A DNA stretch of 64,000 nucleotides, from positions 8,948 through 72,947 of the forward strand of contig JAUCBJ010001498.1 of assembly GCA_032718475.1 (NCBI GenBank). Direction: 5' to 3'. The position numbers and the translations under genes were made by a program. The notes under the pieces are model-generated. The model was given only the letters and a program-made list of their open reading frames with translations, was not told where the DNA came from and ran no database searches. How positions within the stretch are numbered: position 1 is the first letter of the stretch; each line of letters starts with the position of its first letter. The DNA is from Nemertoderma westbladi. Taxonomy: Eukaryota; Animalia; Xenacoelomorpha. This document shows positions 1 to 64,000 of this stretch, in pieces.

Positions 1-3000
1 ACTCACCTGTGAGCAACCCATCACACACTCATCTGTGAGCAACCCATCACACTCTCATCTGTGATCAGCCCATCCCAAACTCACGTGAGCAACGGCATCC
101 AACACTCACCTGTGAACAACCCATCCCAAACTCACCGGCGAGCAACCAACCCCAATCACCTGTGAGCAACCCACATCCCACTCTCACCTGTGAGCAACCC
201 ATCCCATACTCACCTGTGAGCAACCCATCACTCACTCACCTGTGAGCAACCCATCCCACACTCACCTGTGAGCAACCCATCACTCACTCACCTGTGAGCA
301 ACCCATCCCACACTCACCTGTGAGCAACCCATCCCACACTCACCTGTGAGCAACCCATCCCACACTCACCTGTGAGCAACCCATCACACACTCATCTGTG
401 AGCAACCCATCACACTCTCATCTGTGATCAGCCCATCCCAAACTCACGTGAGCAACGGCATCCAACACTCACCTGTGAACAACCCATCCCAAACTCACCG
501 GCGAGCAACCAACCCCAATCATCTGTGAGCAACCCATCCCACTCTCACCTGTGAGCAACCCATCCCACACTCACCTGTGAGCAACCCATCACTCACTCAC
601 CTGTGAGCAACCCATCCCACACTCACCTGTGAGCAACCCATCACTCACTCACCTGTGAGCAACCCATCCCACACTCACCTGTGAGCAACCCATCACTCAC
701 TCACCTGTGAGCAACCCATCCCACACTCACCTGTGAGCAACCCATCCCACACTCACCTGTGAGCAACCCATCACACACTCATCTGTGAGCAACCCATCAC
801 ACTCTCATCTGTGATCAGCCCATCCCAAACTCACGTGAGCAACGGCATCCAACACTCACCTGTGAACAACCCATCCCAAACTCACCGGCGAGCAACCAAC
901 CCCAATCACCTGTGAGCAACCCATCCCACTCTCACCTGTGAGCAACCCATCCCAAACTCACCGGCGAGCAACCCATCACTCACTCACCTGTGAGCAACCC
1001 ATCACTCACTCACCTGTGAGCAACCCATCCCACACTCACCTGTGAGCAACCCATCACTCACTCACCTGTGAGCAACCCATCACTCACTCACCTGTGAGCA
1101 ACCCATCCCTCACTCACCTGTGAGCAACCCATCACTCACTCACCTGTGAGCAACCCATCCCACACTCACCTGTGAGCAACCCTTCCCACACTCACCTGTG
1201 AGCAACCCATCCCACACTCACCTGTGAGCAACCCATCACACATTCACCTGTGAGCAACCCATCACACAATCACCTGTGAGCAACCCATCCCAAACTCAAC
1301 TGTGAGCAACCCATCCCACTCTCACCTGTGAGCAACCCATCCCACACTCACATGTGAGCAACCCATCCCACACTCACCTGTGAGCAACCCATCCCACACT
1401 CACCTGTGAGCAACCCATCCCACACTCACCTGTGAGCAACCCATCCCACACTCACCTGTGAGCAACCCATCCCACACTCACCTGTGAGCAACCCATCCCA
1501 CATTCACCTGTTTGCAACCCATCACACACTCACCTGTGAGCAACCCATCACACACTCACCTGTGAGCAACCCATCACACACTCACCTGTGAGCAACCCAT
1601 CCCACACTCACCTGTGAGCAACCCATCACTCACTCACCTGTGAGCAACCCATTCCACACTCACCTGTGAGCAACCCATCACTCACTCACCTGTGAGCAAC
1701 CCATCACTCACTCACCTGTGAGCAACCCTTCCCACACTCACCTGTGAGCAACCCATCCCACACTCACCTGTGAGCAACCCATCACACACTCACCTGTGAG
1801 CAACCCACCACACTCACCTGTGAGCAACCCATCCCACACTCACCTGTGAGCAACCCATCACTCACTCACCTGTGAGCAACCCATCCTACACTCACCTGTG
1901 AGCAACCCATCACTCACTCACCTGTGAGCAACCCATCCCACATTTACCTGTGAGCAACCCTTCCCACACTCACCTGTGAGCAACCCATCACACACTCACC
2001 GGTGAGCAACCCATCACACACTCACCTGTGAGCAACCCATCCCAAACTCAACTGTGAACAACCCATCCCACTCTCACCTGTGAGCAACCCATCCCACACT
2101 CACCTGTGAGCAACCCATCACTGACTCACCTGTGAGCAACCCATCCCACACTCACCTGTGAGCAACCCATCCCACACTCACCTGTGAGCAACTCATCCCA
2201 CACTCACCTGTGAGCAATCCATCCCACACTCACCTGTGAGCAACCCATCACACACTCACCTGTGAGCAACCCATCACACACTCACCTGTGAGCAACCCAT
2301 CCCAAACTCACCGGCGAGCAACCCATCCCACACTCACCTGTGAGCAACCCATCCCACACTCACCTGTGAGCAACCCATCACACACTCACCTGTGAGCAAC
2401 TCATCACACACTAACCTGTGAGCAACCCATCCCAAACTCACCGGCGAGCAACCCATCCCACACTCACCTGTGAGCAACCCATCACTCACTCACCTGTGAG
2501 CAACCCATCCCACACTCACCTGTGAGCAACCCATCACTTACTCACCTGTGAGCAACCCATCCCACACTCACCTGTGAGCAACCCATCCCACACTCACCTG
2601 TGAGCAACCCATCCCACACTCACCTGTGAGCAACCCATCACACACTCATCTGTGAGCAACCCATCACACTCTCATCTGTGATCAGCCCATCCCAAACTCA
2701 CGTGAGCAACGGCATCCAACACTCACCTGTGAACAACCCATCCCAAACTCACCGGCGAGCAACCAACCCCAATCACCTGTGAGCAACCCATCCCACTCTC
2801 ACCTGTGAGCAACCCATCCCACACTCACCTGTGAGCAACCCATCACTCACTCACCTGTGAGCAACCCATCCCACACTCACCTGTGAGCAACCCATCACTC
2901 ACTCACCTGTGAGCAACCCATCCCACACTCACCTGTGAGCAACCCATCCCACACTCACCTGTGAGCAACCCATCACACACTCATCTGTGAGCAACCCATT

Positions 3001-4358
3001 ACACTCTCATCTGTGATCAGCCCATCCCAAACTCACGTGAGCAACGGCATCCAACACTCACCTGTGAACAACCCATCCCAAACTCACCGGCGAGCAACCA
3101 ACCCCAATCACCTGTGAGCAACCCTTCCCACACTCACCTGTGAGCAACCCATCACACACTCACCTGTGAGCAACCCATCCCAAACTCAACTGTGAACAAC
3201 CCATCCCACTCTCACCTGTGAGCAACCCATCCCACACTCACCTGTGAGCAACCCATCACTCACTCACCTGTGAGCAACCCATCCCACACTCACCTGTGAG
3301 CAACCCATCCCACACTCACCTGTGAGCAACTCATCCCACACTCACCTGTGAGCAATCCATCCCACACTCACCTGTGAGCAACCCATCACACACTCACCTG
3401 TGAGCAACCCATCACACACTCACCTGTGAGCAACCCATCCCAAACTCACCGGCGAGCAACCCATCCCACACTCACCTGTGAGCAACCCATCCCACACTCA
3501 CCTGTGAGCAACCCATCACACACTCACCTGTGAGCAACCCATCACACACTAACCTGTGAGCAACCCATCCCAAACTCACCGGCGAGCAACCCATCCCACA
3601 CTCAACTATGAGCAACCCATCCCACTCTCACCTGTGAGCAACCCATCCCACACTCACCTGTGAGCAACCCATCACTCACTCACCTGTGAGCAACCCATCC
3701 CACACTCACCTGTGAGCAACCCATCACTCACTCACCAGTGAGCAACCCATCCCACACTCACCTGTGAGCAACCCATCCCACACTCACCTGTGAGCAACCC
3801 ATCCACACTCACCTGTGAGCAACCCATCACTCACTTACCTGTGAGCAACCCATCCCGCACTCACCTGTGAGCAACCCATCACACACTAACCTGTGAGCAA
3901 CTCATCCCACAGTCACATATGAGCAACCCATCACACACTCACCTGTGAGCAACCCATCACACACTCACCCGTGAGCAACCCATCACACACTCACCTGTGA
4001 GCAACCCATCACACACTCACCTGTGAGCAATCCATCACAAACTCACCTGTGAGCAAACCATCCTACACTCACCTGTGAGCAACCCATCCCACTCTCACCT
4101 GTGAGCAATCCATCCCACACTCACCTGTGAGCAACCCATCACTCACTCACCTGTGAGCAACCCATCCCACACTTACCTGTGAGCAACCCATCCCACAGTC
4201 ACCTGTGAGCAACCCATCACACACTCACCTGTGAGCAACCCATCACACACTCACCTGTGAGCAACCCATCCCAAACTCACCGGCGAGCAACCCATCCCAC
4301 ACTCAACTGTGAGCAACCCATCCCACTCTCACCTGTGAGCAACCCATCCCACACTCAC
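1..4358. repeat. Satellite 1 (26-bp monomer CACCTGTGAGCAACCCATCCCACACT), left segment; continues beyond window start
   Basis: Directly visible tandem 26-mer with point variants. Confidence 0.98.
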
Positions 4359-4520
4359 AACTAACTGACACTCATTAACTCACTGTTAATTGCCTGACTG
4401 GCCCTACTGCCCTACTGCCCTTCTGTGACTGGCCCTACTGCCCTACTGCCCACTGATGTAGTTTGCTCGGAATCCCAAACTTCCTTTTGCGCAAGGGAAA
4501 AAAAAAAAATCTCAGCAACG

Positions 4521-5405
4521 ATGTCGAATTCTCAAGAAAAACCACAATTGAATTTGTCAGATCTCGCCGGAATATCGAAACAACAATTTCTAGCAAAGAT
4601 TACAAAGGAACGATTGTACGAAGCATTACAATCCGCAGGACTTCTCGATGACTCAAGGGATACTCAACTGAACGAGACAAGTTCACAGCAATGCAAATCA
4701 GATATGGCCACCATAATCCGTGATGCAATTCGTAACGAGTTGGCGGATGTTAAGGGCGAAATCTCTGGCGTTAATAAGAAACTAGACGAGCTGGGTGCTC
4801 TACGATCAAAAGTAACGGCGCTAAACGACGTGGTTGACAACGTGAAGAAAGATAATGCAAAACTACGCAGCGAGGTAGAAGGTTGTAAAGATGTTATAGC
4901 AAAACAGCAGCGTCAACTAGAAGTTTTTGACACTGACAGAAGATCGAAGAATATAATTATTCGTGGGATACCAGAAATAAATCCAGAAGTAGATCGCGCA
5001 TTTTCAATAAAGATATTGAAGATTGCCGGCATGGAGAACCCTAACAACGTTTCGTTTAGACGATTAGGACGACAGTCAGATACAACTAATGGGACACAAC
5101 AGGGTGGGAGTGCCCCGAGTCGTCCTCGACCGGTGTTAGTTGAGCTGGAGTCTCGCTATATTCGTGATAAGCTACTAGTTGGTGCCAAATCGTTGTCTAA
5201 GGCAGGAGAGGAATTTCACAACGTATATATTAAACGAGATGAGATACCCCAGACCCTTGAAATGAATAGCAAACTGTACAAAGCGCTGCACGAGGAGAAA
5301 CAGAAGCCCGTCAATATCAATGCAAACGTATTTATTAACTGGCGTACAAGGTGTGTGATGAGGGATAATACTGTATTATTTCAGGTACCCAAATTGGGTT
5401 TTTAA
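4521..5405 (+). CDS. LINE ORF1 (coiled coil plus RRM-like nucleic-acid-binding domain)
   Basis: Heptad-rich region followed by RRSKNIIIRGIPE...FRRLGR...RPRPVLVEL...VYIKRD, typical of LINE ORF1p. First ATG at 4521. Confidence 0.85.
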   Translation: MSNSQEKPQLNLSDLAGISKQQFLAKITKERLYEALQSAGLLDDSRDTQLNETSSQQCKSDMATIIRDAIRNELADVKGEISGVNKKLDELGALRSKVTALNDVVDNVKKDNAKLRSEVEGCKDVIAKQQRQLEVFDTDRRSKNIIIRGIPEINPEVDRAFSIKILKIAGMENPNNVSFRRLGRQSDTTNGTQQGGSAPSRPRPVLVELESRYIRDKLLVGAKSLSKAGEEFHNVYIKRDEIPQTLEMNSKLYKALHEEKQKPVNINANVFINWRTRCVMRDNTVLFQVPKLGF

Positions 5406-8400
5406 TAGGGCCGTGTGTAGATCTTAACATTCTTTGGTTTAATATCGCTGGAATTCAGAATAAGTTAGAAAATAGAAATACTGTACACTTTTTACTCCAA
5501 TTTGACATTATATTTTTATTGGAAATTAATAGTGCTTTGAATTTTACTGTACCTGGGCTCAAGTTTTTAAAGCGAAGTAAAATTTTACAAGGCAGAGGCC
5601 ACCGTGGCGGTGTGGCTCTATTTGCCAAACCGTTTTTAGAGGATTTTATTACTGAAATAAAAGACAATTATGAGGACCAGTTGTGGATAAAAATACCTAC
5701 CGTAGATTCAAGGTATATCGGAGGATGTTACATCCCCAATAGCAGTTCAAAATTTTTTGATATATCATGTTTTGGGATTATTCAGGGTATGTTTATGTCT
5801 GGGGATGCCCTATTGGCCGGAGGTGATTTAAACAGTAGAATTGGTTACCCCGGTTGCCAACCGCTGGATGGGGCCTATAAAACCTGGCCAGATAATACTG
5901 TAAATAGCCATGGGAAAATATTGAAACAAATGTGTACTGACACGGATGCAGTTATTGTGAACGGTTTAAAAGTACCATCATGTGATTTTCAGAGTGGTCT
6001 AACTTATAAAATAAAAGGAGTATGGAAGTCAGCTTTGGACTATATAATAGTAGCGAGGTCTCACGTAGAAGGTCCCAACAATAAACTCAGGTCATTAACT
6101 ATTTGGTCTGACATAACCTTACCATCTGATCATGCACCAATTAGTATATCTATTAGAGCAAACGAGATGCCTCTGGCACTATTAGATAAGCGAGCAACGA
6201 GTTTAGGTACCTATGACAATTACCTTAAAAGAGGGCACGAGGTAGCACATCGATTGAAGCCAAACCAAAACAGTGTATCCAACTATACCCAGTATATGCG
6301 AGTCAATAACCCACCGCCGTCATTGAGTATGAACATGAGTGATGTGCATTTCATTTGTAACGAACTTAGTAACCAATTATATGCTGCAGCAAAAACAACC
6401 CGTTGTAGGATAAAGGCGAGAGCTGGCAGTACCGACACCACATCTTGGGGGAATGAGAGGTGGAACCACTTACTTGCATGTAAAGACTCTAAAACGTTAT
6501 GGGCTGCCATTGATTGGAGAGGTAATGTATCTACGCTGTCAACTCAAACAGATAGTCCAACATGCCCAACAGACGATGAATTTCAAGCTCATTACATACA
6601 ATGCGCTATTAAATGATCCTGAGTATATAGAAGAGCAAATTGAATCTGAAATTAATATCCCTCTTTTAGATGAAGATATAACAATCAATGAAGTCAATGA
6701 CGCAGCCTCGAAACTGAAATCGAACCGTGCTAGCGGTCCAGATGGATTGGCATCCGAATATTTGAAATCACTTCCAATGAACTGGCTGATTACTTTAACA
6801 ATGATATTTAACTTGGTATTCTCTTCTAGAATTTACCCGAACACATGGGCATATGCTACACTTGTGTCAATCTTTAAGAAAGGAAATCGAATGTTATGTT
6901 CGAATTATAGGGGGATCAGTGTCATGAACTGTATACCTAAGCTTTATGATATGATATTAACTAGTAGGCTCATGGCCTGGTATAAACCATTACCTGAGCA
7001 AGCAGGTGCTAGTAAGGGCCGAGGATGTATTGAGCAAATACTGGCGATACGATTGCTTTGTGATCATGCGAGGAAATGTAAAGCTATACTCTATGTGGTC
7101 TTTGTAGATTTCGAAAAGGCCTATGACAATGTTAATCGTAACTACATGTTTGAAATGTTGAATAAGCTTGGTTGTGGTTCTAGAATGCTTAGAGCTTTAC
7201 AGGCTATGTATAAGACAACTATTGCTTCAGTCCACTCACTATATATTATTTGTAATAAAGGCGTCCGCCAAGGTTCACCAGGAAGCTTATACTTGTTCGT
7301 AACCATTATTGATTGTTTTGTAAGAGCACTTAAAAAGCTCACACCCGATAGCTGGCTCAGAAAGCTCCACAGTGTACTACTTATGGATGATACTGCAATA
7401 ATGGGAACATCTAGGGAGGCAATTATTGTGAAATTAAAAGTGCTTGAGGAATTCTGCCGGACTTCTGGGATGATCATCAATATTAAGAAAACCAAATTTA
7501 TTGTAATAAACGGAACTGACGATGACAAACGCGACTTCATTATTGGGAACAAAGCAATAAAATATACAAATTCATATATATATCTGGGCTCACCTATTTC
7601 TGCAGACGGTTTAGTTTCAACCGCAATAGAGCTGATAGCAAAGGAGAAACAGTCGCACTTATTGAAATTCTCTACATTCATCAATAAGAACCCTGATGTA
7701 CCATTCCGTGTGAAAAGGAAAATTTTTGATGCTGCCTTAATCAGCAATTACATATGGGTGCGAAACATGGTGCGGTGGGTCAATAGTTCCAATGACGAAG
7801 ATTTACATGTCAATGGTACGTCTGTTATTGGGTGTCCGACCAACAACGTGTGGCGACATTTGCCTGATCGAGCTCGGTATTCCTGACTTTGAGACTTTAG
7901 TCCTGGACAAACAACGAAAATTCTTAAATAACTTCACTATTGTCGATGATTCCCCTCTAAAGATAGCTATGGAACTCGTTGAAGTTTCTAGAAGTCCAAT
8001 GTACCTAGCTATGGAGAGGGTAAGGAAACTGCCCAATAATTACCTTGATCAGCAGCATTCAAAACTCACGAAATCGGTAGTAACATCAATGACAACAAAA
8101 CGTCACCTTTATAAACTAATGAACCCTACTACGTCACCACCTCATTTATACTTTGATCCAAGGGTTCCAGAACGTCATAGGATATCCTGGTCCCGCTTCA
8201 GATTAGGCAGCCACAATTTCCCAGTTGAACGAATGCGGTGGGCGAGAGTGAAACCAGAGGAGCGTTGGTGTCAGTGCGGGGCAATTCAAACTGAACAGCA
8301 CTTAGTTACGGAGTGTCCTAAAGCACTGAAACATAGAACAGAGACAGAGGGGTGTACTGGAACGGCTTGGAACGATCTGGCTAGTTTATTTGCTTTGGAA

Positions 8401-8454
8401 AACCAGCCTGCTATAGCCAAAATGATTTATAAAATAAACGGCGAATTTGATTGA
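5402..8454 (+). pseudogene. LINE ORF2 (APE endonuclease, reverse transcriptase, C-terminal CCHC) with two frameshifts
   Basis: APE motifs WFNIAG, GGVALF, GDLNSR, LDYI, SDHAPI. RT motifs ASGPDG, NYRGIS, FVDFEKAYD, GVRQGSPGS, LMDD, YLGS. C-terminal CQCG..EQHLVTEC. Frameshifts at about 6595 (4-nt TACA duplication) and about 7740 (SAITYGCETW continues in another frame). Confidence 0.88.
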
Positions 8455-8823
8455 TATTTTGAAAGAATTTTCTATTTGAAAGGTTGAACATATTTGGTTT
8501 TTGTATCTTAGTTTCATGACAATTTATTTATTTGAAAATTTAAGTAAGTGAAGTTTCTTTTACGGAGCCCCTGAAGTTTTCATTAGTTTTCGACAATGAA
8601 TCGATTATTATATATATATATATTATATATATATTTTACGTATATTTTTTACGTATGCTATATTTTACGTATGTATAATATATTTATTTACTGTAAGAGA
8701 ATTATTTATTGTTCTTACCGGTACATTTACTGGTCTCACCATTCTTCACACGGCCAAGAAGTAATTAATTTGTGATATAATATTGTGTATTTATATGTGA
8801 TGACAATAAACTTCAATCAATCA

Positions 8824-19736
<10,913 letters not shown>

Positions 19737-20646: not shown

Positions 20647-20774
20647 CTGCCGGGGACTTTCAGCAATATATTTTCTGGTTTCAAGTCGCAATGAATTATT
20701 CGATGCTCGTGCAGAGTGCGAAGGCAGACAACCATAGAATTCGCGAATTTTCGGACAAGTTCTAAACTGAATCC
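20647..20774 (-). CDS. DYRK2: DYRK kinase exon (catalytic loop), not in the ORF track
   Basis: Manual translation gives [42 protein letters not shown](R). HCDLKPEN is the DYRK signature. Acceptor atccag|, donor AG|GTTGGT. Confidence 0.93.
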
Positions 20775-45114: not shown

Positions 45115-45286
45115 CTTAAATTTGTTTGACTTTATAAGATCGTAAAGATTTATACTAAGGAGCTCAAACGTTATACAAATGTGATGACGGAACTCGAATG
45201 TGTCCAGGACTCGGACCACGTTGCATGGTTTCACTTTGTCGATTTCTCTCAAGTGGTGTAGCAGCTTAATTTCCTCCTTGGCCTGC
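45115..45286 (-). CDS. DYRK2: DYRK kinase exon (subdomains III-V), not in the ORF track
   Basis: Manual translation gives (R)[57 protein letters not shown]. Acceptor tttcag|G, donor AAG|GTAAGT. The 172 nt length is phase-compatible with both neighbours. Confidence 0.93.
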
Positions 45287-45696: not shown

Positions 45697-45855
45697 TATA
45701 GTTATTGAGAATCTGTTTGTTATGTAATAAACTACTAGAGTATGTAATAACGCCCACTATGTAATAAAATCAGGTAATAGTCTGGTACTGCAATAGCTTT
45801 AATTGCGAATATATAAATTTGTATATATTAATTACTGAATGACACATAGTCATAC

Positions 45856-46562
45856 CTGTGAAATCTGGGCTCATTCCTCACAATTTTCAAAGCTACGTGT
45901 TTCTTTTCTGCGTGATCGAAAGCCTTTACTACTTGGCCGAAACTTCCTTTACCAATTACTTTCAGTATCTCATATCGATAGGCGATGTGGTCGTAAATGA
46001 CTGTTTTGTAGGAACCCCCATCATCATCGTAATTACAGTTATTACCTCTGCCTTCTGCTACAGATTTGTCCTTTCTAGCATTTTTACCAAAATAGTAAAT
46101 TCGAGGAAATTCAAGAATCTCTTTTTGTTCGATGGCGGTTAATTTATTGCCGAACCTCCTGAGGACTTCTAAGGGGCTCATATGCTTGATTTCTACAAAC
46201 ATGCGATCGATGTCTCCTTTATTTGGCGTCGAACTGAGACTTTTAGAACTTTTTGTAGATGATTTGCTCTTTACTGAATGGGGTGCAATATCAGTGGAAA
46301 CGTGAAGTAACCTTGCAATTGATTTAATTTTTGACGGTTTCGTATCTGAGGCACAAATGCTTGGCTCAGAGGCCGAGTAACAAGGCGATCTCTTCACATT
46401 CGGTTTCGCACTATCAGCTGCCATCATGTTCTCGGCTTTGGTTTGAGGTATACCGCGTTCCACGCTAGTGACTTCTTGCGACTTTGTTTTTGCACATTTT
46501 TCCGGTGTTTTTGTTTTCGGCATAGAGGAATTAACTTTAGACGAATAGGGTGGTGAAGCCAT
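45856..46562 (-). CDS. DYRK2: Class-2 DYRK kinase (DYRK2/3-like), first recognisable coding exon
   Basis: Translation contains a NAPA-like IYYFG, a DH box (NYDDDGGSY), then DHIAYRYEILKVIGKGSFGQVVKAFDH..VALKIVRN. It ends at phase-2 donor CACAG|GTATGA (45855). The start at ATG 46562 (MASPP) is inferred and an upstream exon is possible. DYRK2 versus DYRK3/4 orthology is not resolved. Confidence 0.88.
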
Positions 46563-48607
46563 TAGGGTGTCTTTGCCAGCCCGGTTGTAGATGCAGAACC
46601 AACAAAGTGACATCAAAACGTGTCATTGAATTAATACCGCGTTCAATCGGCATTACTGTGATCCCAATTTCAAATTTAAATAGTATCGACTCCTGGGTTA
46701 ATACGAAAATTATCAGCTTTCAAAAATAACACATTTCAGTGTATGAAAGGATTCTAGAGATGAAAGGGACTAATTATCATGCCGAATTTTGTATTCTTAC
46801 CTAAACAATACACGAAAACCAAGAACACATGTTATTCTATAACCCTATAGACTAGAGATAATTTAACTCTTTGATTTTGTTTCCGTTCGATTGCTTCAGG
46901 AAGGCCTGTTTGAACTCTTTCTCTTGTTTGTCGCTGGAAATATTCATTTTCTACAGATATTTTACGTGCATTAGCCTACTGTAATTTACTCGCTAATAAT
47001 AGCGATGTTATTATAGTGGGAATCACTTATGTACACCAAATCTGGTGATTTTTTTAATGTGCATTTTTTATGTGTTTTTTGGTTTACTTAGTGTTCTAGA
47101 ACATAGTTGGACCACCAGATTCACAGAATATTAAATATTTTTATGGTAGCTAGTAATTTATGAAAATATTGCAAATAATGATTGTAAAATCAAATATTTG
47201 GTATTTTTATTTTCTCTAAACTAACAAAAATATGAAAGTTTATTATTTTTGTGTATTTTTTTAGTTATTTCTAATTCACAAGGCAATAATTGTTCTAGAA
47301 CTAATTTTAGCTAACTTTTGTTTTTTAAAATGGCTGTTTCTAGAGACTATATACGTAGTTATCCTACCGAACTGAACATAGGAGATTTGTGTGAAATTAA
47401 AGAGTGAAGAATCTGCAATCAAATTTGCCCACGAAAGTAGTCTGCGCTACCATCCAGTGGTACAAAACGTGAGTGTGAGGTTAACAGATGCAAAGATAAT
47501 AGTTCTAACGTATGCATTATTGCGTATTATCTAACGTTATCTAACATTATCTGACACTATGATAAAGAAAAATAATCATAATAGAACAGTTAAAAACACA
47601 CATTTAAAAAATACATATTTGGTGTACGTAGTCACGTACGGAAGTGATATAAAGTGATACCGGATTGTGTAGGAAAAAATTAGTTCTAGCATGGCCTGGT
47701 CTTTATTTACTTAATGATAGCTAGCTAGCACTTCGGTAGTCATCTTGATATTAATTGTGAATGTTAGCAAGGCATAAATACTGTATAATCAATTTCTTAT
47801 TCAATATTCAATATTCTTATAGTGCATACCGGGTGTCCCAGTATTCTCTACTCAAATCTACATAATTAAATATGGTTTCGATTTTATTTTTAAATTTGTT
47901 ACCCGGGTCACAATTAATAATGCTTTAACTTCTGTTCTCAATCAAAATTTATTTATGGTGGTTCGTACTTAACACCGGCCATGATATCTTAAACGTTACA
48001 TTATTCAATCAATTCACAATAATAATAATCAACAACAATACTGAATATTATCAGACCAAGTAATAAATAATATAGCGAATTATTAATTGCTTTTAATACA
48101 GCTTGATAAATTTAATTGTTTCCTTAGAAACCTGAAAATCTTTCTGAAATTTGCGTCAATTCGCCCGCTATACTTCACCCTGATTCTGTTAATGGGTAGC
48201 CTACCGGTACATATTTAACTCATTCGAAGCTGACGACAACCAACAACAATTACTATTTTAACTGTGTGTGTTAGGCTATTTTATCCAAAACTTGAGACTA
48301 GAGAGAGCGAGTGTTGTCGGACGCCAAGAATAGGCTTATATAATTAGCCATAGTATAATTATTCACGGAGATGTTGCATAGAATAATACGAAATTTAATC
48401 AAAATCTAAAATTATCTTTTCTAAATCACTAAAATTTCATATCATTTCTATTCTGTAATCCAAACTTTCATAACATTAACTCTTGTTTTCCACTCTCCAA
48501 TGTGTTATTACAATCATTTCTCCAAACTACACGAGTTGTGGTAAACCGCGAGCCGCCGTAGTGTTGTTAGCTAATAATTATCATCATATTAATATCACAA
48601 TTTAAAT

Positions 48608-49701
48608 CAAAATCCACAGTGATGGCTGTAAAATTATTGTACAACAGCACTAGAGCCGGCGGGAGGTCATTTATACTGTGTGTTTATCGACTTCGCAAAG
48701 GCATTCGACACCATCGACAGAGAAATTCTATGCATGAAACTATCCCAGCTTGGAGTAAGTCGGAAATGTATTACTGCGATCTGGGCTCTACTTCCAGTAA
48801 ACTTTGTCTGCATCTGCGTTGGATTATACTGTATGTATTAGAACCAATTGCACAAAATATCGGCGTAGTACAAGGTGACAAACTTTCGCCACTCTTGTTC
48901 AACTTATTTGTTGCAGATTTACCTCTGTTTATTGCAGTCGCGATTTGCTTCATTAATAGTATGCTGACGACCTGGTAATTGCTGGTGAGTCCCTCAGTGA
49001 CGTACAAACAAGCCTCAACAGATTATCAGAATACTGTAAGCTAAACAACCGTTCATGACAACTGTAATCTCCATGCAATCAGCACACCGCTTATGGAATG
49101 CGTGATATTGCCATCAACAACTTACGGTTGCTCCGTATTTACCAACACAACCTCCGAGGTGAACGGATTGGCACATGTGGGACGTGTCAGAGCTTATTTC
49201 TGGAAACTCTGCTGCGGGATAAGCAAATACGCATCATCCACCTCGATACTAAGCGCCATCGACTCAGAACTATACTCAAACAGCATTATCGAACTCCGAT
49301 TCAGATTATCACCTCTAACTGGCTTCCGACGAATAGCAGCCGCCCAGCTGGTGTCGAACGGCTGTCACCAACGTCTGTGTTCAAACCCCACCTGCTGGCG
49401 ACCGACGGACGAATGTGGACGGGCTGGCTTTGCAACACACCAGCAACATCGCCAGACCATTACATAGTATGCTCCGTAATAAACACAAACTTACTTGTGG
49501 CTCTTTTCCTGATGTGTCTGGAGAGGGTCGATGACAGTATCCAATTTTAACTCAACTGTGTTTTAATATATAGTTTTATTATTTTATTTCATAATTATAA
49601 AGGCAAATTTTAGCCATATTTTTACTTACAGTATATAATTACAATCATTGTACCTACATACATTATTTGTCCAAATGTTTGGAGTTAAATTAAATATATT
49701 C
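48608..49701 (+). mobile_element. Degraded, truncated LINE (RT fragment)
   Basis: FIDFAKAFDTIDR, GVVQGDKLSPLLFNLFV and YADDL in shifting frames. 17-bp TSD AATATCACAATTTAAAT at 48591-48607 and 49702-49718. Confidence 0.85.
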
Positions 49702-49981
49702 AATATCACAATTTAAATTCTGCGTTGCAGTTAAGGTATGTGACTATGATATGACTCGACTATGGTATGGTATGATTCTGTATTCGGACTTCGCTAAAGG
49801 CCCATATGATACTATAGCGAAACACATAATATTGGGAAGGGGATTTAATGGTAAAAAGCAACCTCAGACACCAACTATGCGTTTAGAGAATTTAACAAAA
49901 TTAAAACATTAAGGGAAAATAAATGTTACAGTGGCGGTGTTTTTAACCAAAACAATAATCGAAACTACATAAATATAAAAC

Positions 49982-52900: not shown

Positions 52901-54517
52901 AGTTAACCTATATAGTTAGCGATGGCCTGCGGCTTTAGGAGCGGCCGCGGTATTCACCTCCCTCATAGCGGCCGCGGCGGTGTTGCATCAAATGGAGAAA
53001 TATTTATCCCACCAAGTGAGGCAAAAAGTCACTTAGAGGGTGCCTGAACGAGAGAAAGCCGCCCCAATATTAGATTATTACAACAACATATCCATTGGGT
53101 AAGAAAGTGGAGGAGAGCCAGCCCGTCTCTTAATTTTTTACTTTATATTACGCGATCAATTTTCACTCATCTCGTCATGAACCCAACATGTATGTAACCT
53201 TTTGTTAAATTTGTTGGCTATGCGTTTGCGGTTGTTTGGGCGGAGTGTGGTAGGCCTACACTTTTTCACACTTAAATATTTTGGTTGTGAAATGTTACAG
53301 GGCATAGCGATCTGAGATATTTCATTTATATTTTATTATGAGAGGAAGAAGAACATACAACGTTATTTACTATGTAACAAAATAATTGTTTTCGGGTTTA
53401 ACTTGGAAGCCTCCCCAAATAGTTGATATACAATTATATTTAAAATTATTTCCATGGTCATGGTCATTCACCCGTCTTTAGTTAGAAATTTGTTTGCATG
53501 AAAGACAGTTTAGTTTAGTTTTTACTGATTTATTATCTCTTATCTGACTGGGGTAATAATAAAGGATAGGATAAATGGAAGCAAAGTGTGACAGTAACAA
53601 ATATTTCCCCGTCACCCTAGCATGTCTTAAGTATATGATATATCAAAGGGGGAAGTTTGGATTCACTGCATAAATGCAGTTCACCAAACTTCCCCCGAAT
53701 ACACACTGTAACTTCCCCCTTCCCCCAAATATCCACTGTTGAATTAATTTGAAGCGATATAATAAGTACAAAATTGTGCGAGTTTTTAATTGTGTGGTCC
53801 AATTGTTATTTGATTTCTATTTATTATTTAAAGTGCATTTAATATCACACTGGTTTTTAGAATACTATACAACCTTATGTTTTATTAATTTACCCAATCG
53901 AAGCCTCATAAGGGCCGGTTATTTGTACGCATATCCCCTAATGCGCTCAGTAAGGTTCAAACAACATATTAATATGAAAATAAAGTATCTGCAAAGAAAA
54001 TAACCCAATACTATATAATTTGACCTTATTAAAAAATTTGCACTTTTGCACACTTATTTGTACAAGTGCACTTCAGCAGATCGTAATGGTGGCTCTTATT
54101 TAACAAACTTATGTTTATCCTCTACCGATCTACAGGTGTATGATCAAGTGTCAGTCGCTAAAAGTGTCAAAAATCCAATTTAATAAATCTGGATTTGCGA
54201 ATTTGGACCATATTCATGGACATTTTAAGTCACTTTATAGACATAAAAAGTTAAACAAATGTTACGATTATAGTTAGAAATCATTCCAAACTACATTTTA
54301 ATCCAAAAAATAACATTCTACGATGAATGGAACTGGAAATAATAGTGTTTGAAATATCGAAAAAATGTTCACTATTTAAGTGCATTTTGCACTAAGCACA
54401 TGCGTCTTTTCCCAAGTTGTATCCTATTTCACACACTACAATCTATTCTCTATCCAATGAAAAAAGTTTCAGATTAAACGGCCCTGTAGAACCGAAGTTA
54501 TTTATGTCTAAAAATAG
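49982..54517. repeat. Direct duplication: 49982-~51465 repeated at 53049-54517 (period about 3067 bp)
   Basis: Both copies start CGAGAGAAAGCCGCCCCAATATTAG and match, with scattered differences, to ...AAAAATAG. Confidence 0.92.
51491..51563 (+). pseudogene. Degenerate tRNA-like sequence (tRNA pseudogene or SINE head)
   Basis: 73 nt long, with acceptor-like ends GGTCA/TGACC, A-box TAGTCTAGTGG and T-arm/B-box TGGGTTCGAAACCCA. The anticodon arm does not fold canonically. Confidence 0.55.
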
Positions 54518-54528
54518 CGTTCCACGCT

Positions 54529-57500
54529 AGACAAGGGTAAGTAGTTAGTCACTGACCCTCAGACAAAGGTAAGTAGTTAGTCACTGACCCTCAGACAAAG
54601 GTAAGTAGTTAGTCACTGACCCTCAGACTCGGATAAGTAGTTAGTCACTGACCCTCAGACAAAGGTAAGTAGTTAGTCACTGACCCTCAGACTCGGATAA
54701 GTAGTTAGTCACTGACCCTCAGACTCGGGTAAGTAGTTAGTCACTGACCCTCAGACAAGGGTAAGTAGTTAGTCACTGACCCTAAGACAAAGGTAAGTAG
54801 TTAGTCACTGACCCTCAGACAAAGGTAAATAGTTAGTCACTGACCCTCAGACAAGGGTAAGTAGTTAGTCACTGACCCTCAGACAAAGGTAAGTAGTTAG
54901 TCACTGACCCTCAGACAAAGGTAAGTAGTTAGTCACTGACCCTCAGACAAGGGTAAGTAGTTAGTCACTGACCCTCAGACAAAGGTAAGTAGTTAGTCAC
55001 TGACCCTCAGACAAAGGTAAGTAGTTAGTCACTGACCCTCAGACAAAGGTAAATAGTTAGTCACTGACCCTCAGACTCGGATAAGTAGTTAGTCACTGAC
55101 CCTCAGACTCGGATAAGTAGTTAGTCACTGACCCTCAGACAAGGGTAAATAGTTAGTCACTGACCCTCAGACAAAGGTAAGTAGTTAGTCACTGACCCTC
55201 AGACAAAGGTAAGTAGTTAGTCACTGACCCTCAGACTCGGATAAGTAGTTAGTAACTGACCCTCAGACAAAGGTAAGTAGTTAGTCACTGACCCTCAGAC
55301 AAAGGTAAGTAGTTAGTCACTGACCCTCAGACAAAGGTAAGTAGTTAGTCACTGACCCTCAGACAAAGGTAAGTAGTTAGTCACTGACCCTCAGACAAAG
55401 GTAAATAGTTAGTCACTGACCCTCAGACAAAGGTAAGTAGTTAGTCACTGACCCTCAGACTCGGATAAGTAGTTAGTAACTGACCCTAAGACTCGGATAA
55501 GTAGTTAGTCACTGACCCTAAGACTCGGATAAGTAGTTAGTCACTGACCCTCAGACTCGGATAAGTAGTTAGTCACTGACCCTCAGACAAGGGTAAATAG
55601 TTAGTCACTGACCCTCAGACAAAGGTAAGTAGTTAGTCACTGACCCTCAGACAAAGGTAAGTAGTTAGTCACTGACCCTCAGACAAAGGTAAGTAGTTAG
55701 TCACTGACCCTCAGACAAAGGTAAGTAGTTAGTCACTGACCCTCAGACAAAGGTAAGTAGTTAGTCACTGACCCTCAGACAAAGGTAAGTAGTTAGTCAC
55801 TGACCCTCAGACAAAGGTAAGTAGTTAGTAACTGACCCTCAGACAAAGGTAAATAGTTAGTCACTGACCCTAAGACTCGGATAAGTAGTTAGTCACTGAC
55901 CCTCAGACTCGGATAAGTAGTTAGTAACTGACCCTCAGACAAAGGTAAGTAGTTAGTCACTGACCCTCAGACTCGGATAAGTAGTTAGTCACTGACCCTC
56001 AGACAAAGGTAAGTAGTTAGTCACTGACCCTCAGACAAAGGTAAGTAGTTAGTCACTGACCCTCAGACAAAGGTAAGTAGTTAGTCACTGACCCTCAGAC
56101 AAAGGTAAATAGTTAGTCACTGACCCTAAGACTCGGATAAATAGTTAGTAACTGACCCTCAGACTCGGATAAGTAGTTAGTAACTGACCCTCAGACAAAG
56201 GTAAGTAGTTAGTCACTGACCCTCAGACAAAGGTAAATAGTTAGTCACTGACCCTAAGACTCGGATAAGTAGTTAGTCACTGACCCTAAGACTCGGATAA
56301 ATAGTTAGTAACTGACCCTCAGACTCGGATAAGTAGTTAGTAACTGACCCTCAGACAAAGGTAAGTAGTTAGTCACTGACCCTCAGACAAAGGTAAATAG
56401 TTAGTCACTGACCCTCAGACTCGGATAAGTAGTTAGTCACTGACCCTAAGACTCGGATAAATAGTTAGTCACTGACCCTCAGACTCGGATAAGTAGTTAG
56501 TCACTGACCCTCAGACTCGGATAAGTAGTTAGTCACTGACCCTCAGACAAAGGTAAGTAGTTAGTCACTGACCCTCAGACAAAGGTAAGTAGTTAGTAAC
56601 TGACCCTCAGACAAAGGTAAGTAGTTAGTCACTGACCCTCAGACAAAGGTAAGTAGTTAGTCACTGACCCTAAGATAAGGGTAAATAGTTAGTCACTGAC
56701 CCTCAGACAAAGGTAAGTAGTTAGTCACTGACCCTCAGACAAAGGTAAATAGTTAGTCACTGACCCTCAGACTCGGATAAGTAGTTAGTCACTGACCCTC
56801 AGACAAAGGTAAGTAGTTAGTCACTGACCCTCAGACAAAGGTAAGTAGTTAGTCACTGACCCTCAGACAAAGGTAAATAGTTAGTCACTGACCCTCAGAC
56901 AAGGGTAAGTAGTTAGTCACTGACCCTCAGACAAAGGTAAATAGTTAGTCACTGACCCTCAGACTCGGATAAGTAGTTAGTCACTGACCCTCAGACAAGG
57001 GTAAATAGTTAGTCACTGACCCTCAGACTCGGATAAGTAGTTAGTCACTGACCCTCAGACAAAGGTAAGTAGTTAGTCACTGACCCTCAGACAAAGGTAA
57101 GTAGTTAGTCACTGACCCTCAGACTCGGATAAGTAGTTAGTCACTGACCCTCAGACTCGGATAAGTAGTTAGTCACTGACCCTCAGACAAAGGTAAGTAG
57201 TTAGTCACTGACCCTCAGACAAAGGTAAGTAGTTAGTAACTGACCCTCAGACAAAGGTAAGTAGTTAGTCACTGACCCTCAGACAAGGGTAAGTAGTTAG
57301 TCACTGACCCTCAGACAAAGGTAAATAGTTAGTCACTGACCCTAAGACTCGGATAAGTAGTTAGTCACTGACCCTCAGACAAAGGTAAGTAGTTAGTCAC
57401 TGACCCTCAGACAAAGGTAAGTAGTTAGTCACTGACCCTCAGAGAAGGGTAGTCACAGACCCTCAGACAAAGGTAAGTAGTTAGTCACTGACCCTCAGAC

Positions 57501-60500
57501 AAAGGTAAGTAGTTAGTCACTGACCCTCAGACAAAGGTAAGTAGTTAGTCACTGACCCTCAGACAAAGGTAAGTAGTTAGTCACTGACCCTCAGGCAAGG
57601 GTAAGTAGTTAGTCACTGACCCTCATACAAGGGTAAGTAGTTAGTCACTGACCCTCATACAAGGGTAAGTAGTTAGTCACTGACCCTCATACAAAGGTAA
57701 GTAGTTAGTCACTGACCCTCAGACAAAGGTAAGTAGTTAGTAACTGACCCTCAGACAAAGGTAAGTAGTTAGTCACTGACCCTCAGACTCGGATAAGTAG
57801 TTAGTCACTGACCCTCAGACAAGGGTAAGTAGTTAGTCACCGACCCTCAGACAAGGGTAAATAGTTAGTCACTGACCCTCAGGCAAGGGTAAGTAGTTAG
57901 TCACTGACCCTCAGACAAAGGTAAGTAGTTAGTCACTGACCCTCAGACAAAGGTAAGTAGTTAGTAACTGACCCTCAGACAAAGGTAAGTAGTTAGTCAC
58001 TGACCCTCAGACAAAGGTAAGTAGTTAGTAACTGACCCTCAGACAAAGGTAAGTAGTTAGTCACTGACCCTCAGACTCGGATAAGTAGTTAGTCACTGAC
58101 CCTCAGACAAAGGTAAGTAGTTAGTCACTGACCCTCAGACAAAGGTAAGTAGTTAGTCACTGACCCTCAGACAAAGGTAAGTAGTTAGTAACTGACCCTC
58201 AGACAAAGGTAAGTAGTTAGTCACTGACCCTCAGACAAAGGTAAGTAGTTAGTCACTGACCCTCAGACAAAGGTAAGTAGTTAGTCACTGACCCTCAGAC
58301 AAAGGTAAGTAGTTAGTCACTGACCCTCAGACAAAGGTAAGTAGTTAGTCACTGACCCTCAGACAAAGGTAAGTAGTTAGTCACTGACCCTCAGACAAAG
58401 GTAAGTAGTTAGTCACTGACCCTCAGACAAAGGTAAGTAGTTAGTCACTGACCCTCAGACAAAGGTAAGTAGTTAGTCACTGACCCTCAGACAAAGGTAA
58501 GTAGTTAGTCACTGACCCTCAGACAAAGGTAAGTAGTTAGTCACTGACCCTCAGACAAAGGTAAATAGTTAGTCACTGACCCTAAGACTCGGATAAGTAG
58601 TTAGTCACTGACCCTCAGACAAGGGTAAGTAGTTAGTCACTGACCCTCAGACAAAGGTAAGTAGTTAGTCACTGACCCTCAGACTCGGATAAGTAGTTAG
58701 TCACTGACCCTCAGACAAAGGTAAATAGTTAGTCACTGACCCTCAGACAAAGGTAAGTAGTTAGTCACTGACCCTCAGACAAAGGTAAATAGTTAGTCAC
58801 TGACCCTAAGACTCGGATAAGTAGTTAGTCACTGACCCTCAGACAAGGGTAAGTAGTTAGTCACTGACCCTCAGACAAAGGTAAGTAGTTAGTCACTGAC
58901 CCTCAGACAAAGGTAAGTAGTTAGTCACTGACCCTCAGACTCGGATAAGTAGTTAGTCACTGACCCTCAGACAAAGGTAAGTAGTTAGTCACTGACCCTC
59001 AGACAAAGGTAAGTAGTTAGTCACTGACCCTCAGACAAAGGTAAGTAGTTAGTCACTGACCCTCAGACAAAGGTAAGTAGTTAGTCACTGACCCTCAGAC
59101 AAAGGTAAGTAGTTAGTCACTGACCCTCAGACTCGGATAAGTAGTTAGTCACTGACCCTCAGACAAAGGTAAGTAGTTAGTCACTGACCCTCAGACAAAG
59201 GTAAGTAGTTAGTCACTGACCCTCAGACAAAGGTAAGTAGTTAGTCACTGACCCTCAGACAAAGGTAAGTAGTTAGTCACTGACCCTCAGACAAAGGTAA
59301 GTAGTTAGTCACTGACCCTCAGACTCGGATAAGTAGTTAGTCACTGACCCTCAGACAAAGGTAAGTAGTTAGTCACTGACCCTCAGACAAAGGTAAGTAG
59401 TTAGTAACTGACCCTCAGACAAGGGTAAGTAGTTAGTCACTGACCCTCAGACTCGGATAAGTAGTTAGTCACTGACCCTCAGACTCGGATAAGTAGTTAG
59501 TCACTGACCCTCAGACAAAGGTAAGTAGTTAGTCACTGACCCTCAGACAAAGGTAAGTAGTTAGTCACTGACCCTCAGACTCGGATAAGTAGTTAGTCAC
59601 TGACCCTCAGACAAAGGTAAGTAGTTAGTCACTGACCCTCAGACTCGGATAAGTAGTTAGTCACTGACCCTCAGACTCGGATAAGTAGTTAGTCACTGAC
59701 CCTCAGACAAAGGTAAGTAGTTAGTCACTGACCCTCAGACAAAGGTAAGTAGTTAGTCACTGACCCTCAGACAAAGGTAAGTAGTTAGTCACTGACCCTC
59801 AGACAAAGGTAAGTAGTTAGTCACTGACCCTCAGACAAAGGTAAGTAGTTAGTCACTGACCCTCAGACTCGGATAAGTAGTTAGTCACTGACCCTCAGAC
59901 AAAGGTAAGTAGTTAGTCACTGACCCTCAGACAAAGGTAAGTAGTTAGTCACTGACCCTCAGACAAAGGTAAGTAGTTAGTCACTGACCCTCAGACTCGG
60001 ATAAGTAGTTAGTCACTGACCCTCAGACAAGGGTAAGTAGTTAGTCACTGACCCTCAGACAAAGGTAAGTAGTTAGTCACTGACCCTCAGACTCGGATAA
60101 GTAGTTAGTCACTGACCCTCAGACAAAGGTAAGTAGTTAGTCACTGACCCTCAGACAAAGGTAAGTAGTTAGTCACTGACCCTCAGACAAAGGTAAGTAG
60201 TTAGTCACTGACCCTCAGACTCGGATAAGTAGTTAGTCACTGACCCTCAGACAAGGGTAAGTAGTTAGTCACTGACCCTCAGACAAAGGTAAGTAGTTAG
60301 TCACTGACCCTCAGACAAAGGTAAGTAGTTAGTCACTGACCCTCAGACAAAGGTAAGTAGTTAGTCACTGACCCTCAGACAAAGGTAAGTAGTTAGTCAC
60401 TGACCCTCAGACAAAGGTAAGTAGTTAGTCACTGACCCTCAGACTCGGATAAGTAGTTAGTCACTGACCCTCAGACAAAGGTAAGTAGTTAGTCACTGAC

Positions 60501-63500
60501 CCTCAGACAAAGGTAAGTAGTTAGTCACTGACCCTCAGACAAAGGTAAGTAGTTAGTCACTGACCCTCAGACAAAGGTAAGTAGTTAGTCACTGACCCTC
60601 AGACAAAGGTAAGTAGTTAGTCACTGACCCTCAGACTCGGATAAGTAGTTAGTCACTGACCCTCAGACTCGGATAAGTAGTTAGTCACTGACCCTCAGAC
60701 AAAGGTAAGTAGTTAGTCACTGACCCTCAGACAAAGGTAAGTAGTTAGTCACTGACCCTCAGACAAAGGTAAGTAGTTAGTCACTGACCCTCAGACAAAG
60801 GTAAGTAGTTAGTCACTGACCCTCAGACAAAGGTAAGTAGTTAGTCACTGACCCTCAGACACAGGTAAGTAGTTAGTCACTGACCCTCAGACAAAGGTAA
60901 GTAGTTAGTCACTGACCCTCAGACAAAGGTAAGTAGTTAGTCACTGACCCTCAGACAAAGGTAAGTAGTTAGTCACTGACCCTCAGACAAAGGTAAGTAG
61001 TTAGTCACTGACCCTCAGACAAAGGTAAGTAGTTAGTCACTGACCCTCAGACAACGGTAAGTAGTTAGTCACTGACCCTCAGACAAAGGTAAGTAGTTAG
61101 TCACTGACCCTCAGACAAAGGTAAGTAGTTAGTCACTGACCCTCAGACAAAGGTAAGTAGTTAGTCACTGACCCTCAGACTCGGATAAGTAGTTAGTCAC
61201 TGACCCTCAGACAAAGGTAAGTAGTTAGTCACTGACCCTCAGACAAAGGTAAGTAGTTAGTCACTGACCCTCAGACAAGGTAAGTAGTTAGTCACTGACC
61301 CTCAGACAAAGGTAAGTAGTTAGTCACTGACCCTCAGACAAAGGTAAGTAGTTAGTCACTGACCCTCAGACAAAGGTAAGTAGTTAGTCACTGACCCTCA
61401 GACAAAGGTAAGTAGTTAGTCACTGACCCTCAGACAAAGGTAAGTAGTTAGTCACTGACCCTCAGACAAAGGTAAGTAGTTAGTCACTGACCCTCAGACA
61501 AAGGTAAGTAGTTAGTCACTGACCCTCAGACAAAGGTAAGTAGTTAGTCACTGACCCTCAGACAAAGGTAAGTAGTTAGTCACTGACCCTCAGACAAAGG
61601 TAAGTAGTTAGTCACTGACCCTCAGACATCGGATAAGTAGTTAGTCACTGACCCTCAGACAAAGGTAAGTAGTTAGTCACTGACCCTCAGACAAAGGTAA
61701 GTAGTTAGTCACTGACCCTCAGACAAAGGTAAGTAGTTAGTCACTGACCCTCAGACAAAGGTAAGTAGTTAGTCACTGACCCTCAGACAAAGGTAAGTAG
61801 TTAGTCACTGACCCTCAGACATCGGATAAGTAGTTAGTCACTGACCCTCAGACAAAGGTAAGTAGTTAGTCACTGACCCTCAGACAAAGGTAAGTAGTTA
61901 GTCACTGACCCTCAGACAAAGGTAAGTAGTTAGTCACTGACCCTCAGACAAGGTAAGTAGTTAGTCACTGACCCTCAGACAAAGGTAAGTAGTTAGTCAC
62001 TGACCCTCAGACAAAGGTAAGTAGTTAGTCACTGACCCTCAGACAAAGGTAAGTAGTTAGTCACTGACCCTCAGACAAAGGTAAGTAGTTAGTCACTGAC
62101 CCTCAGACAAAGGTAAGTAGTTAGTCACTGACCCTCAGACAAAGGTAAGTAGTTAGTCACTGACCCTCAGACAAAGGTAAGTAGTTAGTCACTGACCCTC
62201 AGACAAAGGTAAGTAGTTAGTCACTGACCCTCAGACAAAGGTAAGTAGTTAGTCACTGACCCTCAGACAAAGGTAAGTAGTTAGTCACTGACCCTCAGAC
62301 AAAGGTAAGTAGTTAGTCACTGACCCTCAGACAAAGGTAAGTAGTTAGTCACTGACCCTCAGACAAAGGTAAGTAGTTAGTCACTGACCCTCAGACAAAG
62401 GTAAGTAGTTAGTCACTGACCCTCAGACAAAGGTAAGTAGTTAGTCACTGACCCTCAGACAAAGGTAAGTAGTTAGTCACTGACCCTCAGACAAAGGTAA
62501 GTAGTTAGTCACTGACCCTCAGACAAAGGTAAGTAGTTAGTCACTGACCCTCAGACAAAGGTAAGTAGTTAGTCACTGACCCTCAGACAAAGGTAAGTAG
62601 TTAGTCACTGACCCTCAGACAAAGGTAAGTAGTTAGTCACTGACCCTCAGACAAAGGTAAGTAGTTAGTCACTGACCCTCAGACAAAGGTAAGTAGTTAG
62701 TCACTGACCCTCAGACAAAGGTAAGTAGTTAGTCACTGACCCTCAGACAAAGGTAAGTAGTTAGTCACTGACCCTCAGACAAAGGTAAGTAGTTAGTCAC
62801 TGACCCTCAGACAAAGGTAAGTAGTTAGTCACTGACCCTCAGACAAAGGTAAGTAGTTAGTCACTGACCCTCAGACAAAGGTAAGTAGTTAGTCACTGAC
62901 CCTCAGACAAAGGTAAGTAGTTAGTCACTGACCCTCAGACAAAGGTAAGTAGTTAGTCACTGACCCTCAGACAAGGTAAGTAGTTAGTCACTGACCCTCA
63001 GACAAAGGTAAGTAGTTAGTCACTGACCCTCAGACAAAGGTAAGTAGTTAGTCACTGACCCTCAGACAAAGGTAAGTAGTTAGTCACTGACCCTCAGACA
63101 AAGGTAAGTAGTTAGTCACTGACCCTCAGACAAAGGTAAGTAGTTAGTCACTGACCCTCAGACAAGGTAAGTAGTTAGTCACTGACCCTCAGACAAAGGT
63201 AAGTAGTTAGTCACTGACCCTCAGACAAAGGTAAGTAGTTAGTCACTGACCCTCAGACAAAGGTAAGTAGTTAGTCACTGACCCTCAGACAAAGGTAAGT
63301 AGTTAGTCACTGACCCTCAGACAAGGTAAGTAGTTAGTCACTGACCCTCAGACAAAGGTAAGTAGTTAGTCACTGACCCTCAGACAAAGGTAAGTAGTTA
63401 GTCACTGACCCTCAGACAAAGGTAAGTAGTTAGTCACTGACCCTCAGACAAAGGTAAGTAGTTAGTCACTGACCCTCAGACAAAGGTAAGTAGTTAGTCA

Positions 63501-63949
63501 CTGACCCTCAGACTAGGTAAGTAGTTAGTCACTGACCCTCAGACAAAGGTAAGTAGTTAGTCACTGACCCTCAGACAAAGGTAAGTAGTTAGTCACTGAC
63601 CCTCAGACAAAGGTAAGTAGTTAGTCACTGACCCTCAGACAAAGGTAAGTAGTTAGTCACTGACCCTCAGACAAAGGTAAGTAGTTAGTCACTGACCCTC
63701 AGACAAAGGTAAGTAGTTAGTCACTGACCCTCAGACAAAGGTAAGTAGTTAGTCACTGACCCTCAGACAAAGGTAAGTAGTTAGTCACTGACCCTCAGAC
63801 AAAGGTAAGTAGTTAGTCACTGACCCTCAGACAAAGGTAAGTAGTTAGTCACTGACCCTCAGACAAAGGTAAGTAGTTAGTCACTGACCCTCAGACAAGG
63901 GTAAGTAGTTAGTCACTGACCCTCAGACAAAGGTAAGTAGTTAGTCACT
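54529..63949. repeat. Satellite 4 (32-bp monomer AGACAAAGGTAAGTAGTTAGTCACTGACCCTC), roughly 290 copies
   Basis: Directly visible. Main variant is AGACTCGGATAAGT. Confidence 0.98.
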
Positions 63950-64000
63950 AGTACTCTGCGTTGATACCACTGCTTAAGCAGTGGTATCAACGCAGAGTAC
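63950..64000. other. Artefact: head-to-head SMART-type / ultra-low-input amplification adapter
   Basis: AAGCAGTGGTATCAACGCAGAGTAC at 63976-64000, preceded by its exact reverse complement. Confidence 0.97.

Follow-up and report, generated by a model that had tools for sequence, protein, structure and literature searches.

In the genome of Nemertoderma westbladi, the tandem array referred to here as satellite 4 is built from a 32-nt unit that can be read as six exon-like nucleotides and a complete 26-nt intron. This raises the question of whether the units are spliced one by one, whether the array as a whole lies within an intron, or whether its splice-like motifs are coincidental. A previous sequence-only reading of the window, i.e. 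the whole stretch of 64,000 nt analyzed here, had interpreted the array as a series of micro-exons, perhaps amplified from a junction of a plus-strand gene and acting as a U1/U2 snRNP decoy or as a recursive array. Our analysis indicates that satellite 4 likely represents a repeat of known type on an unusual scale, with the micro-exon reading being improbable and the decoy function unsupported.

We regard it as probable that satellite 4 both belongs to the class of minisatellites derived from exon-intron boundaries and would be excised as a single intron. More tentatively, and with slightly less than even confidence, we favor a mirage-type minisatellite that originated from a minus-strand donor, probably of an upstream exon of the DYRK2 gene, and would be removed as one intron. 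The features of the window on which this assessment is based are compiled in Table 1.

Table 1. Features of the window discussed in the text (positions within the 64,000 nt).
Feature	Position	Strand	Remarks
Satellite 1/2, 26-nt unit	1..19550 (1-4358 and 8825-19550)	minus	split by LINE
DYRK2 exon D, 170 nt	19544..19713	minus	DFG and activation loop; donor is the first satellite 1/2 unit
DYRK2 exon C, 128 nt	20647..20774	minus	catalytic loop
Satellite 3	21230-29911		
Satellite 5	39050-44101		
DYRK2 exon B, 172 nt	45115..45286	minus	tblastn
DYRK2 exon A	45856..46622	minus	5' boundary provisional (frame open from 46622); similar to kinases from about 46220; donor follows 45856
Truncated transposon-like copy	53048..54516	plus	97% over 1487 nt to 49981-51464; adjoins the 14-nt stretch and the array
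14-nt direct repeat	54517..54530 = 46455-46468	plus	DYRK2 exon A region; junction of transposon-like copy and array
Satellite 4 left end, putative 3' splice site	54517..54560	minus	last intron base 54527
Satellite 4, 32-nt minisatellite	54529..63949	.	at least 9.4 kb, about 295 copies, adapter at right
Right part of satellite 4	61275..63949	.	uniformity unreliable
Head-to-head library adapter pair, not genomic	63950..64000	.	truncates satellite 4

Composition of satellite 4

The array has a period of 32 nt, 294.8 copies and 95% matches, in agreement with the roughly 290 repeats counted previously. Its 293 whole units (from the first to the last unit end) follow each other head to tail; 284 are 32 nt long, six have 31 nt, two have 33 nt and one has 24 nt. 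The unit sequence quoted in the sequence-only reading accounts for 189 of the 293, and the motifs described there, namely the donor, CACTGAC and CAG on the plus strand as well as GG|GTCAGT and GACTAAC on the minus strand, are all present. The unit carries AAG|GTAAGT on the plus strand and GG|GTCAGT on the minus strand.

A perfect plus-strand donor is retained in 223 units, and the AG in 290 of 293. Among the 284 units of 32 nt, the plus donor is lost at position +1 in 48 and at +5 in 22 cases and the plus acceptor at -3 in 12 and at -1 in three cases; besides these four splice positions, only two other intron positions vary. The commonest variant destroys the plus-strand GT, and the described coupling of an ACTCGG spacer to the change from GT to AT was confirmed for 48 of the 49 32-nt units with this spacer. 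As the variants fall on donor positions +1 and +5 and acceptor positions -3 and -1, the variation is not kept away from the plus-strand signals. The minus-strand GG|GTCAGT is intact in 292 copies, which is a weak indication since few independent events underlie the variation.

The unit was also found in the DNA runs X1, X2 and X3, which represent two samples. X2 and X3 stem from one sample and X1 may be the source of the window, so that the independent support for the unit amounts to one sample; six of the eight listed X1 contigs show no difference from the window. An origin of satellite 4 by PCR was rejected, as the unit is present in X2 and X3 as well, and a coding array was rejected because of stops in all six frames. 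The unit pattern gave no matches in metagenome contigs, and the search for solo copies in non-array DNA yielded only two 14-mers with two mismatches.

Splice signals on both strands

The plus-strand donor of the unit fits the consensus MAG|GTRAGT at nine of nine positions, a match which occurred on either strand in 0.09% of 200,000 shuffled units. A donor, a branch motif and YAG in the correct order were obtained in 0.006% (6e-5) of 400,000 shuffled units. Thus, the scoring against shuffled monomers proposed in the sequence-only reading places the splice-site sequence of satellite 4 above chance. When the donor was held fixed, the chance of a branch motif plus YAG was 2.5%, that of a minus-strand G|GTNAGT 1.0% and that of a minus-strand ACTAAC 0.4%. 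These low rates on both strands mean that both are splice-like and that the unit alone favors neither of them. The plus-strand branch-like A lies at -8 from the unit end and only 18 nt after the donor.

The window contains four families of long arrays, two of which carry a MAG|GTRAGT donor (about 0.1% each in shuffles), and a minus-strand G|GTNAGT is present in three of the four (shuffle rates of 0.9-3.5% each, either strand). Satellites 4 and 5 have the 9-mer CACTGACCC in common, which corresponds to GG|GTCAGT on the minus strand, and a minus-strand AG|GT occurs in 176 units of satellite 3. No exon was found at the ends of satellites 3 and 5 within the window; the right flank of satellite 5 contains several plus-strand acceptor-like sites.

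These comparisons bear on another explanation, an ordinary intergenic or transposon-linked minisatellite whose splice-like motifs are a coincidence from scanning very many windows. Shuffled units contain YAG in 90% and CTRAY in 26% of cases, the variants do not avoid splice positions, the left flank of satellite 4 is a high-copy repeat and two other arrays of the window have no exon anchor, all of which speak for a coincidence. Against it stand the two of four families with a nine-position donor consensus, one of which is proven to be junction-derived (see below), and the fact that boundary and inner units differ exactly at splice-like positions. We consider a coincidence quite unlikely.

The idea that the unit is distinguished by a hairpin was rejected, as the self-complementarity of the common unit is equalled by 35% of shuffles. 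Its folding z-scores are -0.07 and -1.19, and only the left junction of the array folds well (z -2.55).

DYRK2 and the array at its exon D

The statement that no host gene is visible in the window has to be revised, since four exons of DYRK2 were identified on the minus strand by tblastn with ten of at least 120 homologues listed. Among the matches listed, the homologues come from many animal phyla and share 41-61% identity. Exons A to D are connected by GT-AG junctions with the frame kept. The introns measure 569 nt (A-B), 24,340 nt (B-C), 933 nt (C-D) and at least 19.5 kb (after D); the three complete introns of the window therefore range from 569 to 24,340 nt. In this assembly, satellite 4 sits 8 kb upstream of exon A. 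No near-identical N-terminal DYRK2 protein that could have pointed to an upstream exon was found at E<=1e-10, the 104 candidates being 134-429 aa long. Inside the 24-kb intron and on the same strand as DYRK2, an intronless, GC-rich TRIP13/PCH2 open reading frame is located at 32326-33729; the 464 aa searched contain TRIP13_N, AAA and lid domains.

Run X4 (labelled 'DNA?') contains a 1358-nt contig confined to exon B and another one on exon A, from 46459 to 45880. As these two contigs lie on exons and several unique intronic bins are without coverage, X4 may be a transcriptome. It has no coverage on satellite 4, a result which was counted neither way as the contigs are those of one study. The exon A contig of this one study starts 5 nt from the 14-nt repeat; it has no loose end and was not counted.

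Satellite 1/2 starts exactly at the donor of DYRK2 exon D, and its unit consists of exon tail and intron head. The authentic exon-intron junction is thus the boundary unit of an array of about 585 units, in which the 13-nt donor context occurs 235 times in exact form, the authentic copy included. It is therefore proven that satellite 1/2 is a donor mirage of DYRK2 exon D, a cleaner case than satellite 4, for which it is the model within the window. The interruption of satellite 1/2 is a full-length LINE on the plus strand (4398-8824); it has an ORF1, and its ORF2 is frameshifted.

The ends of satellite 4

Position 63949, previously given as the end of the array, is the point at which a library adapter cuts it. 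The adapter sequence is named as a contamination of PacBio HiFi reads in PMC12613986, and sequence joined beyond it is suspect. The last 83 units include one substituted unit and eight with indels, as compared to 94 and one, respectively, among the first 210. This pattern likely reflects thin long-read coverage or polishing in the right part, in which the longest 'perfect' runs of units also fall.

A natural right boundary is provided by the loose end of record 10 of run X2, one contig from another sample. This contig comprises 2828 nt at a depth of 27, with 23-33 for single-copy contigs of the run, and its last 70 letters lie on satellite 4. The boundary unit differs from the inner units over roughly its last ten bases. 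Its minus strand consists here of an A-rich tail followed by the consensus GTAAGT, with A and not G at position -1 of the donor, where the inner units have the weaker GG|GTCAGT. On the plus strand it ends in TTTTTCAG, where the inner units end in CCCTCAG, and the CTGAC motif is changed to CTTAC. Judged from this one contig, the boundary unit has escaped homogenization, and together with a 30-letter flank it forms a candidate junction that is donor-like on the minus and acceptor-like on the plus strand. From its letters, the plus-strand 'branch point and CAG' of the inner units reads as the reverse complement of a minus-strand donor and exon tail. By eye, self-complementarity can be recognized in the boundary unit (GTAAGT ... 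ACTTAC). An origin of the plus-strand donor from an inverted copy is only a suggestion, because the common unit is no more self-complementary than its shuffles.

The left end carries a canonical-looking minus-strand acceptor-like site, with the branch A of a CTAAC at -19, pyrimidines at 12 of 17 positions and a TAG. The authentic acceptor of exon D has its CTAAC at -24, which is comparable to this distance, in contrast to the plus-strand branch A at -8. Directly after the TAG follow 10 nt that are identical to DYRK2 exon A. The 14-nt repeat shared with the exon A region has a chance expectation of 5e-5, and an 11-nt part of it recurs about 190 nt further upstream. The intervals 49981-51464 and 53048-54516 form a 1.49-kb direct duplication, which belongs to a transposon-like element of high copy number.

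That exon A is present a second time beside the array was rejected, as contigs of X1 and X2 cross position 46468 without a break, their depth being like that of single-copy DNA. One 8-kb insertion flanked by a 14-nt target-site duplication is unlikely, since the interval is a mosaic in which an open frame and fragments of decayed LINEs occur. None of the contigs of four runs covers positions 54520-54524, where transposon-like copy, 14-nt stretch and array meet; as the records were filtered, this was counted neither way. The Logan contigs are a product of Minia3 graph simplification, which can delete short links between two high-copy repeats, and summed contig depth was not taken as copy number.

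Strand and origin of the array

A mirage on the minus strand is favored because DYRK2 exons A to D and the nested TRIP13 all lie on this strand, because satellite 1/2 shows the same architecture at exon D and because three of the four long-array families carry the minus-strand G|GTNAGT. Furthermore, the boundary unit deviates at the minus-strand donor, as mirage boundaries escape homogenization, the left end forms a minus-strand acceptor followed by bases identical to exon A, and the minus-strand GG|GTCAGT is intact while the plus-strand donor is often hit.

According to this reading, the array would have started from a short sequence that included the end of an exon, probably an upstream exon of DYRK2, together with the splice donor, and would have grown by head-to-tail duplication to some 300 or more copies. 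The boundary in X2 record 10 would belong to satellite 4 at this locus, and the flank beyond it would be a 5' exon of DYRK2. Slippage and unequal exchange may have driven growth and homogenization, with selection presumably holding only the boundary unit. By analogy to human F7 intron 7, the spliceosome would take the first donor and ignore the inner ones, and the whole of satellite 4 would be removed as one long intron, probably the 5' intron of DYRK2. The perfect plus-strand donor would be a passenger that arose by chance or from an inverted donor copy.

Several points argue against the minus-strand mirage. No host exon was seen in the 30 letters beyond the natural end of the one contig. The best donor of the unit is on the plus strand, where this model does not need it, and the self-complementarity that could account for this donor does not exceed chance in the common unit. 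The minus-strand donor of the boundary unit deviates from the consensus by its A at -1. The placement next to DYRK2 could be due to a mis-join, since the left neighbor is a truncated transposon-like copy and the library is adapter-bearing. Finally, none of the exons found provides an anchor for satellite 3 or satellite 5. In addition, the strand is ambiguous because the plus strand of the boundary unit of satellite 4 forms an acceptor that is stronger than that of the inner units.

The same class of array could thus also stem from a plus-strand gene, through tandem amplification of an acceptor region or of a whole 27-nt intron with 5-6 exon bases; such an array would be excised as a single intron reaching from its first donor to its final and strongest acceptor. 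The perfect donors, the almost invariant AG and the full plus-strand anatomy found in so few shuffled units fit this possibility, and so does the position of both array ends, which are in the same phase and lie directly after an AG. However, no plus-strand exon was seen, the left flank is transposon-like and the boundary unit loses the CTGAC motif. A single-copy ancestor would moreover require a 27-nt intron, a size known only from myxobolids and Dicyema among 51 animal genomes (PMC13644364), whereas the introns here have at least 569 nt. A plus-strand origin appears unlikely, though we take it seriously. Of the earlier proposal of amplification from a plus-strand gene junction, the junction origin is probably right in kind and is directly shown for satellite 1/2, whereas the context with DYRK2 favors the minus strand.

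Splicing of single units and snRNP binding

Splicing of each 26-nt unit, which would leave 6-nt micro-exons or serve as a recursive step, is suggested by the complete order of donor, branch motif and CAG in each unit, and introns below 30 nt do exist in two animal lineages. It was predicted that such splicing would give a stop-free dipeptide repeat. Contrary to this, only 233 of the 293 units keep GT, AG and frame, in unbroken runs of at most 31, and frame and splice sites are thus not preserved along the array in the remaining 60. After in-silico removal of every GT..AG 26-mer, 3150 nt remained, in which each frame had 73-77 stops and no open stretch exceeded 134 codons, the longest of these products lying in the unreliable right part. 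The branch A is close to both the donor and the unit end, and the commonest variant as well as that at +5 destroys the donor. Ratchet points are characterized by AG|GT adjacency (a zero-length exon) after a pyrimidine tract. In satellite 4 the plus-strand acceptor and donor are 6 nt apart, the minus-strand G|GT is preceded by GAG or GG and not by YAG, and the region has long introns. The micro-exon or recursive array is therefore left without support, and we consider unit-wise splicing very improbable.

Introns shorter than 30 nt, as found among 51 animal genomes, were confined to myxobolids and Dicyema, where the splice signals are reduced to GTa...AG (PMC13644364). Their 22-27 nt are similar to the 26-nt unit intron; yet these are compact genomes of parasites, whereas the DNA studied here is repeat-rich, with long introns and full consensus signals. 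That an animal of the free-living type with long introns would splice 26-nt introns, and that an ultra-short intron plus six exon bases was copied about 300 times and is cut unit by unit into a hexamer-repeat RNA, is very improbable as well.

A non-coding transcript of the array that soaks up U1/U2 snRNP would hold more than 220 perfect donors if made from the plus strand. However, a search of positions 44000-64000 against Rfam gave no matches, the motifs bear no sign of selection, and 9 kb at apparently one locus would constitute a small sink. The decoy proposal is unsupported here and seems extremely improbable to us.

Relation to known arrays and introns

In amphioxus, mirages are tandem copies of exon-intron boundaries that leave splicing undisturbed and whose boundary units escape homogenization, according to PMC3087553 and PMC3902484. 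As in the cases described there (Adh3, troponin C, the globins BflGb6 and BflGb9, and PGBD5), short pieces with splice signals are arranged head to tail in satellite 4. Its unit length falls within the 10-72 bp given there for the Adh3 mirage, and its inner units are homogenized while the boundary unit is different. Satellite 1/2 corresponds to the definition of a mirage outright. The published mirages considered here have 3-6 units (BflGb6), as opposed to about 295 in satellite 4 and about 585 in satellite 1/2. A further difference is that either strand of satellite 4 can be read as a donor with an acceptor, and that the host exon is a putative one.

A similar arrangement is the 37-bp VNTR in intron 7 (IVS7) of human F7, where the exon-intron boundary lies within the first unit (PMC1557585). 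Of the 5-9 identical donors, splicing uses the first one only, and the downstream pseudo-donors are normally silent. The F7 copies number 5-9, as opposed to the hundreds described here, and were tested in minigenes. In the model of Rogers, as outlined in PMC3087553, tandem duplication of AG/GT proto-splice sites could turn an array into one intron body between the outermost sites, as proposed here; in contrast to that model, there is no evidence that the intron was newly gained. A partial literature search found no boundary-spanning array with hundreds of copies and no match for giant introns combined with cryptic or recursive splicing.

The intron arrays of Drosophila kl-3 and kl-5 are simple satellites and are not known to be copies of the gene's own splice junction. 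These Y genes have giant introns that are inflated by tandem DNA to the megabase scale (PMC6508621, PMC11207136). In the window, 234 exact copies of a 13-nt donor context follow the authentic one at the start of a single DYRK2 intron, and, if the minus-strand mirage reading is true, the 5' intron of DYRK2 may hold another array that is derived from a junction. A curiosity known from 3-9 pseudo-donors would then be scaled up to hundreds. This would provide a strong natural test of whether the first donor wins when a 5' splice site is chosen, as well as a concrete way in which giant introns can arise. That amplification of a gene's own splice junctions is a main engine of intron growth here, with the spliceosome ignoring hundreds of exact donors per intron, is a possibility that we would at present sooner doubt than assert. 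Such arrays, as well as adapter-cut assemblies, can mimic micro-exon arrays, which calls for caution.

The B-C intron of DYRK2 contains further repeats, a 466-nt two-copy and a 24-nt six-copy repeat (35134-36093 and 38718-38854). Inserted in satellite 5 is a LINE with an open 811-codon frame (RVT_1; 40905-43345, plus strand), and its depth in X1 and X2 is very high. Near exon B (45428-45690) lies a fragment of the 3' part of this LINE, and near-identical 3' pieces were found in run X5 of organism B, possibly by contamination or transfer.
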